Shown here: in pieces, positions 1 through 1,978 of the stretch
Layout: each line of letters begins with the position of its first letter
Numbering within the stretch: the stretch's first letter is position 1
Origin: Limosilactobacillus gorillae
Lineage (GTDB): Bacteria > Pseudomonadota > Alphaproteobacteria > CAAGCB01 > CAG-977
DNA length: 64,000 bases
NCBI GenBank assembly: GCA_963604715.1
Contig: CAVCSV010000009.1
Coordinates: 1,927 to 65,926, forward strand
Direction: 5' to 3'
Program-made: the position numbers and the translations under genes
The notes under the pieces: model-generated
The model's database searches: none
What the model saw: the letters and a program-made list of their open reading frames with translations, nothing else
What the model was told of the DNA's origin: nothing

Positions 1-1978
1 GCGCCAAAATCCTGCTCCACCGTTCCGCATTCTCATGAAAAGCCTCCCAAGGCGAACGGTTTCTTTTTTCGCGGTTGCATTGACGGCAGGAAAGCACTTT
101 GTTTGACCGCGCATCCAGATAAGACCGTGAAAACGGCAGCAAGTGTTCGATTTCAAATTCCGCCGACATCGCCAATTCTGCCGCGGGAATCGGTTTTCCG
201 CAAAACGGACAGCAACGCTGTAAAGGATCTTTGGACGAATCTTTCCAAAGCTTGTATTTCATACGGTTGTCATAGTTGTTTTTGATATTTAATCCCTTTT
301 CCGAATTTAATCTTTGAAATTCCTTGGCGATTTCATCGTTTTCTTTTTCGTTTTGCGTTTGCTCTTTTTCAAGGCGTTTCTTTTCATCCCGCGACAGCTT
401 CAAATCGCGCGCCAATTCAACGACAATCGAATTCGGATGCCCGTATTTTTTCACCAAAGCGTTGACCAGTTTTCGCACTTGATTCAACGCGATATGCACG
501 GTCGGGTTGTTGATTTTGCCGTAATATTTCGGCTCGTCCTTTTTATCTTCGTCTTTTCCCGTTCCGCCAATAACCTGTTCGGGCAAAGCCTGTCCGTAAT
601 AAGGCAGTTCGTCAAAAGCTTCCCCGTCTTCGGGATTGATGAAAGCCTCGTATTTTTCGGGCAGCTTGTCAAATTTTTTTGAAAACACATAGCCCGCCGC
701 GACGACCGCTTTGTCGTACAGCATGCCTTGTTCCAAAAACGGATTGATTTTGTTAATCGCTTTCAAACTCAAAGAACCCGTGCCGTCAGGCAAATTCACG
801 TTTAACGCCTGTTCGGTTTGTTCATCGGTCAAGCCGTATTTTTGCAAAGCCTGTTTCAAATCGTCTTCATTTTCCGTATTTAACAGCAAATCGACGATTT
901 CATCCTGTTTTTCCGCCCAAACAGCACCGAACAAAGGACGCAGCAAAGCGGTCGTTTTATCCGCGTCCAGCCCCTTGCGCCGTTCGGATTCCAAATTGAA
1001 TTTGACGTTCTTGTATCTGTTTCCCAAGATTTTTCTGACAGCGGCAAACGTCAAGCGATAATCCTTGTCCAGTTTGGAAAAATCCTCCAACAGCCAATGA
1101 CGCAGTTCCTGTTTTTGTTTGTCGTCCAATTCGACTTCGGCAAAGTCATCGCGCACCCGCAGCTGATTGATTTGCTGCAACGCGCGGAAACGCTGAAAAG
1201 CGGGAAAAGCGATATAACAGCGTTCTTCGCTTTTTTCAAACGGACAATGCCCTTTCGGCGGCGTTTTCAGCGGACGCTGACTGAAAATCGTTTTGAACAA
1301 ATCGGCTTTGATTTCATCGCTTAAATCCTGTTTGGCAAAGATTTGGCGCACTTCGTCTTCGTACATTTCACGCGTCGGATACATAGTATAAACGGCTTTG
1401 CTTTTTTCCAAATGCGTGCGCACGCGAACGGCATCAAAGTTCTGCGTCGATTGCTTGCCTTTGTTTAAATTGTACAAGTATTCACCCAAAGTCCGAGCGC
1501 CGCTTTGCGTCATTCTTTCGGTCAATTTTTTAATCGCATCTTTCATCGCGCTTGCTTCGTCGTTTTTGCGATCGGTCTTGCGGTTGCTTTTAAAACCGCG
1601 GCGCTGGTTGATATGAAACAAAGCTCGTCCAAGTTCATAGGGCGGCAACTTTTCATCCAATCCTTTAACGCGCAGTTCATACGGGTTCAGCCGTTCCAAA
1701 GCTTTGCGTTCAACTTCGCTTTCGGGCATCAAGCCGTACTTTATCAGTTTGTTCATCAATGTTTCGCGGCGCATGACATAACGGTCGCGGCGTTTGCGCA
1801 TTCCGCGCGCCGTTCTGCGCGCGACGGCAAGCGGTTCTTTGGTTTTGCTGTCGCGCCCGTCCGAAAAAATGCGCACACCCATGCGTTCCAGCCGCAAAGG
1901 AATGCCGTCAGTCCCCAATTCGACAACGCTCCATCCCAGCGAAGTCGAGCCTAAATCCAAACCCAAAACATAATCCAT
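1..1978 (-). CDS. cas9: Cas9 endonuclease (type II-C-like), N-terminal about 659 codons; gene continues beyond the window start
   Basis: Reverse-strand translation from ATG at 1978 reads MDYVLGLDLGSTSLGWSVVE... (RuvC-I Asp motif). It continues with an Arg-rich bridge helix ARRTARGMRKRRDRYVMRR and NPYELRVKGLDEKLPPYELGRALFHINQRR, which resembles Parvibaculum-type II-C Cas9. Near the window edge an HNH motif EIEHLLPFSRSYLDARSNKVLSCRQCNREKRNRSPWEAF is present. No stop is seen before position 1, which explains its absence from the ORF track. RBS aagggg lies about 8 nt upstream. Confidence 0.85.
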   Translation of the reverse strand, partial: MDYVLGLDLGSTSLGWSVVELGTDGIPLRLERMGVRIFSDGRDSKTKEPLAVARRTARGMRKRRDRYVMRRETLMNKLIKYGLMPESEVERKALERLNPYELRVKGLDEKLPPYELGRALFHINQRRGFKSNRKTDRKNDEASAMKDAIKKLTERMTQSGARTLGEYLYNLNKGKQSTQNFDAVRVRTHLEKSKAVYTMYPTREMYEDEVRQIFAKQDLSDEIKADLFKTIFSQRPLKTPPKGHCPFEKSEERCYIAFPAFQRFRALQQINQLRVRDDFAEVELDDKQKQELRHWLLEDFSKLDKDYRLTFAAVRKILGNRYKNVKFNLESERRKGLDADKTTALLRPLFGAVWAEKQDEIVDLLLNTENEDDLKQALQKYGLTDEQTEQALNVNLPDGTGSLSLKAINKINPFLEQGMLYDKAVVAAGYVFSKKFDKLPEKYEAFINPEDGEAFDELPYYGQALPEQVIGGTGKDEDKKDEPKYYGKINNPTVHIALNQVRKLVNALVKKYGHPNSIVVELARDLKLSRDEKKRLEKEQTQNEKENDEIAKEFQRLNSEKGLNIKNNYDNRMKYKLWKDSSKDPLQRCCPFCGKPIPAAELAMSAEFEIEHLLPFSRSYLDARSNKVLSCRQCNREKRNRSPWEAFHENAERWSRILA

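Follow-up and report, generated by a model that had tools for sequence, protein, structure and literature searches.

The DNA analysed here is a stretch of 64,000 nucleotides from contig CAVCSV010000009.1 (assembly GCA_963604715.1), hereafter the window. We consider it very likely that positions 1-2148 are the cas9-proximal end of a chromosomal type II-C CRISPR locus, with cas9 and a predicted gene for the trans-activating CRISPR RNA (tracrRNA), from an uncultured, Rhodospirillales-like alphaproteobacterium of the gut or rumen. Whatever is said below about DNA beyond the window edge is based on 13 related loci, one of which (L001) is syntenic. A preliminary description of this DNA had recognised a partial cas9 and assigned everything else in the locus to DNA beyond the window. 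That is also our expectation for cas1, cas2 and the array, to the left of position 1, but it needs correcting for the predicted tracrRNA gene, which is within the window at ~2049-2148 on the plus strand.

The cas9 fragment and its nuclease residues

A minus-strand reading frame begins at position 1978 and leaves the window at its left edge after 659 codons without a stop. Its translation scores 468.6 bits (E = 5.6e-140) against TIGR01865, the NCBIfam Cas9 equivalog with a cutoff of 100, and matches model positions 1-644 of 1070, a coverage that fits a protein cut at residue 659. The Pfam domains found in it are HNH_4 and Cas9_a (REC lobe), and the part of the protein inside the window consists of RuvC-I, the bridge helix, the REC lobe, RuvC-II and HNH, with RuvC-III and the WED and protospacer-adjacent motif (PAM)-interacting part past the edge. 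We recovered 6903 homologues of the fragment, the nearest of which are 85-91% identical over its whole length, measure 1052-1069 amino acids (aa) and contain RuvC_III; one of them, P0001 (1055 aa), has 91% identity at 100% coverage. The RuvC_III domain (PF18541) is present in Cas9 relatives at 57-91% identity. The complete cas9 is expected to have ~1055-1069 codons, of which ~396 would lie left of position 1. The features of the gene within the window are:

1-1978, minus strand: cas9 codons 1-659, start ATG at 1978-1976 (open frame, TIGR01865, P0001 match, dN/dS as given below)
740-1252, minus strand: REC-lobe segment, residues 243-413 (PF18470 Cas9_a, 38.2 bits against a cutoff of 26.9; aligns with the REC of solved II-C Cas9s)
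1955-1957, minus strand: codon of Asp8, the RuvC-I catalytic aspartate (aligns with D8 of 8jtj, which is Ala in the 8uza variant; invariant in 120/120 homologues)
416-418, minus strand: codon of Glu521 of RuvC-II, in SIVVELARDL (aligned to IHIELARDL of 8jtj; invariant in 120/120)
47-211, minus strand: HNH nuclease domain, residues 590-644 (PF13395 HNH_4, 59.1 bits; PF01844, 24.3 bits; residue census)
1986-1991, minus strand: AAGGGG, a probable ribosome-binding site located 7 nt before the ATG of cas9, as read from the sequence

The fragment aligns end to end with solved II-C Cas9s. The closest structures are 8jtj, 8uza and 9ar4 (1082-1095 aa; E = 5e-66 to 6e-65), which we take to be Geobacillus-type Cas9s, and Neisseria-type structures (6jdq and related entries) rank next (E = 5e-48). 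The likeness to the first group extends over RuvC-I, the bridge helix, REC, RuvC-II and HNH, and both D8 and the HNH histidine correspond, although similarity is low, with an N-terminal alignment accuracy of 0.77. Could the frame nevertheless belong to another RuvC/HNH family, such as IscB or Cas9d? Both models give weak partial matches over the HNH region (24 bits for IscB, NF040563, and 93.6 bits for Cas9d), far below their respective cutoffs of 175 and 375, whereas TIGR01865 is exceeded by a wide margin, a REC lobe is present and the solved II-C Cas9s align throughout. We rejected both identities on these model scores and on the REC lobe, and give a non-Cas9 assignment next to no probability.

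The three motifs quoted in the preliminary description were all located: RuvC-I (GLDLGSTSLGWSV) at residues 6-18, the Arg-rich segment (LAVARRTARGMRKRRDRYVMRRE) at ~residues 50-75, aligned with the Arg-rich segment of 8jtj, and HNH (EIEHLLPFSRSYLDARSNKVLSCRQCNREKRN, i.e., EIEHLLPF...CNREKRN) at residues 609-640. In an alignment of the fragment with 120 homologues, D8, E521, E611-H612, N626 and N635 are invariant in all 120, and H612 falls on the HNH His position that is replaced by Ala in the engineered 8jtj and 8uza. Thus, the uninterrupted frame cut at the window edge, its Cas9 identity and the presence of the RuvC and HNH catalytic residues (RuvC-III being beyond the edge) all stand as first proposed, as does the estimate of ~400 missing codons, which agrees with relatives of 1052-1069 aa, and the REC-less, IscB-like protein that had been named as the finding that would overturn the assignment is not what we see. 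"Compact" was an overstatement, since ~1055-1069 aa is ordinary for II-C and near the 1082-1095 aa of the solved II-C Cas9s.

Two traits of the HNH domain set it apart from 8jtj, 8uza and 9ar4. One is its E-H dyad, which stands in place of their D-H and does not vary among the 120 homologues; the other is a set of four cysteines absent from those structures (C590, C593, C631 and C634, spaced CX2C-X37-CX2C). The four cysteines are kept in the clade at >=57% identity (50/121 sequences) and lost in more distant relatives, three of the four being gone at <=50% identity. We considered them as a novel feature and dropped the idea. In AnaCas9 of Actinomyces naeslundii, a CX2C...CX2C zinc finger flanks the beta-beta-alpha-metal motif of HNH and is reported to stabilise the fold (PMC4333417), and since the same finger is documented there (PMC4333417), that of the window is a known variant. 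The window set C590-X2-C593-X37-C631-X2-C634 is like that of AnaCas9 and would, judging by the motif, bind zinc as well; in sequence, the match (4ogc, E = 2e-10) is confined to the N-terminal part of AnaCas9.

The ratio of nonsynonymous to synonymous substitution rates (dN/dS) of the fragment, 0.09-0.13 against three relatives, indicates purifying selection. Neighbouring esterase, ATP-grasp and enolase genes have values of 0.02-0.05, cas9 being the faster-evolving.

Gene order in relatives and the expected remainder of the locus

Every relative that we read, down to 48% Cas9 identity, has cas9 followed by cas1 and cas2, and an array comes after cas2 wherever the contig extends past it (two contigs end in or just before the first repeat). 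Neither csn2 nor cas4 occurs in any of the related loci read, including syntenic L001 and L002; a cas9-cas1-cas2-array order without these two genes is the type II-C layout. The arrays begin ~50 nt after cas2 and consist of 36-nt repeats with spacers mostly of 30 nt (104 of 117 unique spacers). The named relatives come from human gut, Hadza gut and rumen and are metagenome-assembled genomes (MAGs) with the label Alphaproteobacteria or uncultured Rhodospirillales. With the nearest of these (HGM16787, HGM16788, RUG12246 and a Hadza MAG) the window shares 86-91% Cas9 identity, an identical tracrRNA core, the same cas1/cas2 layout and a repeat that is the same apart from one variable position. They are strain- or species-level variants.

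The syntenic locus allows the unseen part to be placed. L001 carries the 91%-identity Cas9, and its DNA is 93.5-95% identical to window positions 1-11384, with an esterase, an ATP-grasp gene, MarC, a tyrosine recombinase, enolase, a DAHP_synth_1-family gene, SecG and TIM as common neighbours. The window edge maps to L001 position 11957 and the L001 array starts at 14447. By this mapping, the array of the present genome is expected ~2.5 kb left of window position 1, and the remaining cas9, cas1 (301 aa), cas2 (96 aa) and array would all be contained within ~2.5-3.5 kb. Its repeat is expected to be close to ATTATAGCAGATGTTTATTTTGTGTCAAACCGCAAC, as written on the cas9 strand. Inside the 64 kb of the window there are no CRISPR-like tandem repeats, and the core of the relatives' repeat has zero copies. 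The preliminary description is borne out by these comparisons in its type II-C reading, its alphaproteobacterial affinity (at the level of the Alphaproteobacteria rather than of the Parvibaculum type that it named), its guess of a 36-nt repeat and its remark that the window itself holds no array.

The repeats of the relatives also carry promoters. We counted these in L007 (14471-15168), where 11/11 repeats have TTGACA, 16 nt and TGnTATAAT, a 12/12 consensus with an extended -10, antisense to cas9; shuffles yield 2.1 +/- 1.1 promoter-like sites. The hexamers persist in L009 (TTGACG...TATAAT) and L013 (TTGACA...TACAAT) despite differing sequence between them. Repeat promoters antisense to cas9 were also seen in the arrays of L001, L003-L005, L009, L011 and L013-L017. 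A conserved bidirectional hairpin, AAAAAGCCTTTG...CAAAGGCTTTTT, occupies L001 14397-14446, ~10 nt from the cas2-proximal repeat, and an equivalent one is found in the cas2-array gaps of L003, L007, L009, L011 and L013. Such a hairpin would end both the cas operon and the spacer-less transcript from the promoter of the last repeat, and may in this way suppress "extraneous crRNA" (crRNA, CRISPR RNA; compare PMC12080349).

The cas9-esterase gap and its predicted tracrRNA

The start of cas9 (1978) is separated from a convergent esterase gene (stop at 2158) by a gap of 180 bp. Comparison with the related loci shows this gap to encode a predicted tracrRNA of ~100 nt on the plus strand, with the following parts:

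2049-2148, plus strand: predicted tracrRNA gene of ~100 nt, divergent from cas9; 5' end uncertain (~2049-2060), 3' end in the T-run 2138-2148
2052-2088, plus strand: anti-repeat ATTTAGCAGATGATTATTTTGTGTTCTTTCCGCTAAC, complementary to the family crRNA repeat GTTGCGGTTTGACACAAAATAAACATCTGCTATAAT (duplex energy, covariation)
2091-2103, plus strand: stem-loop GTGTC-AAA-GACAC in a nexus-like position, following a conserved AAG (minimum-free-energy fold)
2113-2148, plus strand: terminator, hairpin 2113-2138 (GGGGGCTGAC...GTCGCCCCC) and T-run 2138-2148 (folding, covariation)

Chylinski et al. (PMC3737331) describe four typical positions for tracrRNAs, and one of them has the anti-repeat upstream of cas9. 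Here, ATTTAGCAGATGATTATTTTGTGTTCTTTCCGCTAAC is the repeat of the relatives, read on the cas9 strand, in degenerate form, and is thus complementary to the repeat in the opposite sense, GTTGCGGTTTGACACAAAATAAACATCTGCTATAAT. Pairing of the window anti-repeat with the repeat of the closest relatives yields -36.9 kcal/mol, compared with -14 to -18 for shuffles (standard deviation ~2.7), and cognate duplexes of repeat and upstream element across the loci reach -33 to -43 kcal/mol against shuffle means of -12 to -18 (standard deviation about 2.7). The anti-repeat covaries with the repeat in L009-L013 and L017. In L013, where the centre of the repeat is wholly different (CCGATTTTTAATTAGC), the upstream element has changed in step, and non-cognate pairing between the L013 system and that of the window clade drops to -19 kcal/mol.

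The tail that follows the anti-repeat keeps a fixed order, namely AAG, a 5-bp stem-loop, ACAAAAU, a GC-rich hairpin and a T-run. In the window it folds with -23.5 kcal/mol (z = -3.5), and across 10 loci the hairpin and T-run are significant on the plus strand in all (z -2.0 to -6.0). Over the same number of loci, 11/21 predicted pairs are kept through two-sided substitution, and within the stem-loop columns 55/65 appear as UA, AU and CG and columns 56/64 as GC, AU and GU. The terminator stems of L013 and L017 are unrelated in sequence, with hairpin and T-run kept. This module stays with cas9 though the gene upstream varies and is divergent in several loci; because it tracks cas9 across differing neighbours, the hairpin is not merely the terminator of the adjacent gene, even if 2113-2148 probably also ends the convergent esterase gene on the other strand.

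Watson-Crick complementarity is strand-symmetric, so that the tracrRNA could in principle be transcribed in the direction of cas9 (minus strand), ending at a hairpin ATCTTGCC...GGCAAGAT and T-run at ~2042-2003, with crRNAs made in the cas9 direction. This alternative tail gives good folds in the window and L001 (z -4.1 and -4.8), with ATTTTT after it, and 2/13 loci favour the orientation slightly, by 0.6 kcal/mol. However, the plus strand is favoured in the other 11/13, by up to 12 kcal/mol, because the differences between repeat and anti-repeat form G·U pairs there and A·C mismatches on the other strand. The alternative tail is structured only in the window and L001 (2/10 loci) and is at background in the remaining 8/10. 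A minus-strand reading also provides no explanation for the stem-loop and GC hairpin, which are conserved and covary, and every repeat has its 12/12 promoter antisense to cas9. A minus-strand tracrRNA is, in our estimation, decidedly unlikely.

It is also conceivable that 2052-2088 is a silent, degenerate solo repeat of a former array and that the real tracrRNA is encoded elsewhere, e.g., in the cas9-cas1 gap or beside the array. Such an origin would be in keeping with the view that tracrRNAs derive from degenerate repeats, and a scanner for consensus promoters and terminators called no promoter here. We find this explanation very improbable, given that the position, the covariation with the repeat and the structured tail with its compensatory changes are all kept down to 48% Cas9 identity, and that the places proposed for another tracrRNA offer no room, as cas9 and cas1 overlap in the relatives and the ~50-nt gap between cas2 and array is filled by a terminator.

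Several observations weigh against the assignment of positions 1-2148 to a working II-C locus with a plus-strand tracrRNA. The sequence stops at position 1, and searches for its continuation did not find the source contig: the exact match of the esterase lies on a contig of only 2.2 kb, the ATP-grasp protein has no record, a 44-nt string from the left edge does not occur in JGI metagenomes, and a genome scan yielded only relatives at 61-88% identity. The intactness of cas9 and the existence of cas1, cas2 and array in this genome therefore rest on relatives, one of which is itself damaged: in L010, the gene calls split cas1 into pieces of 64 aa and 236 aa (6698-7602) and the array (7997-8098) has only two repeats, one of them degenerate. 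L010 looks like a decaying locus, so that decay does occur within the family. No Rfam tracrRNA family matches 2049-2148 at gathering or permissive thresholds, the sole trace being a sub-threshold CRISPR-DR63 match at 2043-2081, on the anti-repeat. Measured against the consensus, the candidate tracrRNA promoter is weak; both this promoter and the terminator went uncalled by the scanner in the window, the latter because its stem is bulged. Finally, no PAM could be called, because the flanks differ between the phage records hit by the relatives' spacers and only one protospacer family was found.

The same observations bear on whether this cas9 is a decaying or orphan copy, truncated or frameshifted past the edge or lacking cas1, cas2 and array, and conferring no immunity. 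The region in question lies outside the window, L010 provides an example of such decay, and the presence of the locus at different chromosomal sites in close relatives implies that gain and loss are ongoing. Against this stand the 659 open codons with all assessable catalytic residues intact, the dN/dS against three relatives, an intact tracrRNA module whose functional parts are identical to those of relatives with full loci, and the complete cas9-cas1-cas2-array of the syntenic L001. An orphan cas9 is thus unlikely, and we retain the reading of a cas9-proximal end of a II-C locus.

Proposed function, spacer targets and mobility

Transcription of the two divergent genes would begin between them, in a region with the following candidate signals:

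2011-2042, no strand assigned: palindromic, promoter-like region ATCTTGCC...GGCAAGAT, tentatively proposed from hexamer positions
2014-2042, plus strand: candidate tracrRNA promoter, TTGCCC 2014-2019, 17 nt, CAAGAT 2037-2042, at a position conserved across relatives
2039-2011, minus strand: candidate cas9 promoter, TTGCCA 2039-2034, 17 nt, CAAGAT 2016-2011, a speculative mirror image of the preceding one

The TTGNNN and CAAnnT hexamers keep their positions across relatives, and an RNA hairpin from 2011-2042 is not conserved among them. In the palindrome, each -35 overlaps the -10 of the opposite promoter. The hexamers are weak, and neither promoter was among the calls of the scanner. If both promoters are real, RNA polymerase could sit on only one at a time, and the expression of cas9 and tracrRNA would be coupled or mutually limited.

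By analogy with Neisseria meningitidis and Campylobacter jejuni, we infer the steps from transcription onward. A sigma-70 promoter of its own in each repeat would fire antisense to cas9, and with a promoter in every repeat individual crRNAs would start inside spacers, each beginning a few nt into the spacer and extending into the next repeat. This repeat would pair with the tracrRNA in two stems, a lower one of ~7 bp and an upper one of ~22 bp, with an internal loop between them, and the crRNA:tracrRNA would be loaded into Cas9, whose RuvC and HNH domains would cut PAM-flanked DNA. In the repeat:anti-repeat duplex, the internal loop falls on the -35 hexamer of the repeat, and that hexamer is destroyed in the anti-repeat.

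The relatives resemble the II-C systems of N. meningitidis (Nme1Cas9) and C. jejuni in their minimal cas9-cas1-cas2 set, 36-nt repeats and 30-nt spacers, and in having arrays with a promoter in every repeat, antisense to cas (PMC3737331); the arrays of both these species are transcribed opposite to the cas operon (PMC3737331). The Cas9s are also like that of N. meningitidis in size (~1.05-1.07 kaa here), and the fragment matches the structures of the latter at E = 5e-48; sequence similarity is distant (167 bits). Moreover, the repeats described here have a complete -35 together with an extended -10 (12/12), while those of N. meningitidis have been described as relying mainly on the extended -10. 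Repeat-internal promoters are said to have been established for N. meningitidis by Zhang et al. in 2013. A further difference from both species is the tracrRNA. Its predicted gene is here placed upstream of cas9, in divergent orientation, and its tail is short, with one 5-bp stem and a terminator. It could be postulated that the Cas9 clade of gut Rhodospirillales forms a distinct II-C subgroup, characterised by an economical RNA system (~100-nt tracrRNA with one 5-bp stem and a terminator), perfect repeat promoters, a zinc-finger E-H HNH domain and overlapping divergent promoters of cas9 and tracrRNA (2011-2042), though we hold this to be rather doubtful.

A comparison of 88 concatenated spacers of the relatives with phage records found a single protospacer family, in Microviridae: the L007 spacer CTACTTGATGTAACTGTGCGGACTGACACC (14770-14799) matches 57 Microviridae records, with perfect 30-nt matches in MG945711 (2314-2343) and PQ007210 (4743-4772), and the protospacer sits within an intergenic inverted repeat that is conserved. 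Rhodospirillales-like Alphaproteobacteria of gut and rumen may thus be hosts of these microviruses or, at the least, meet them. Two recurrent spacers have zero exact matches in viral contigs. No spacer of the relatives matches the window, and there is thus no sign of a targeted prophage or of self-targeting in it. In L003 (14516-15470) and L004 (14516-15735), the arrays contain three or four near-identical variant spacers directed at one and the same protospacer. L003 holds GG[C/T/A]AGATCTC[G/T]TCC[A/C]TCTTTCTTGGAAAGC four times, and several variant spacers of the type [A/G]TCAGATAGCGTCACTAT... occur in L004 and L005. These sets, which have no match in viral contigs, look like repeated acquisition against escaping variants of one target.

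The locus adds an uncharacterised II-C Cas9 lineage that is common in human-gut and rumen Alphaproteobacteria, and one spacer ties gut Microviridae to uncultured hosts. With tracrRNA and crRNA repeat defined, the full-length relatives could directly be given a designed single-guide RNA. A full-text search of the literature found neither the repeat string nor that of the tracrRNA (supplementary files and subscription journals lay outside this search). We regard the importance as modest, since no new mechanism is involved and the protein is no smaller than Cas9s already in use.

The module of tracrRNA, cas9, cas1, cas2 and array has differing chromosomal neighbours. We compared its flanks between window positions 1-2150 and L001, L003, L007, L009, L011 and L012: the window and L001 have the esterase next to it, L003 has S21 and DUF6782 genes, and L007 has RsmB. 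The locus occupies the same chromosomal site in L001 and L002 and different sites in L003 and L007, and the GC content of the cas9 region is 47%, compared with ~53% in the rest of the window. Given these differing neighbours and the lower GC, the module apparently moves as one piece, with the tracrRNA terminator and the array as its ends. Our survey of the remainder of the window, to ~41 kb, found ordinary chromosome and no other cas or defence genes. Three tandem paralogues of a DUF6782 putative metallopeptidase lie at 27261-30717 on the minus strand, and a similar DUF6782 triplet adjoins the cas9 locus in L003-L006. An indel distinguishes window positions 4930-5131 from L001 6252-7046, where L001 has an additional gene of 212 aa that matches nothing in Pfam. 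It lies between MarC and the hypothetical gene of 200 aa, and a XerC/D-like tyrosine recombinase (window 5733-6695) is nearby.

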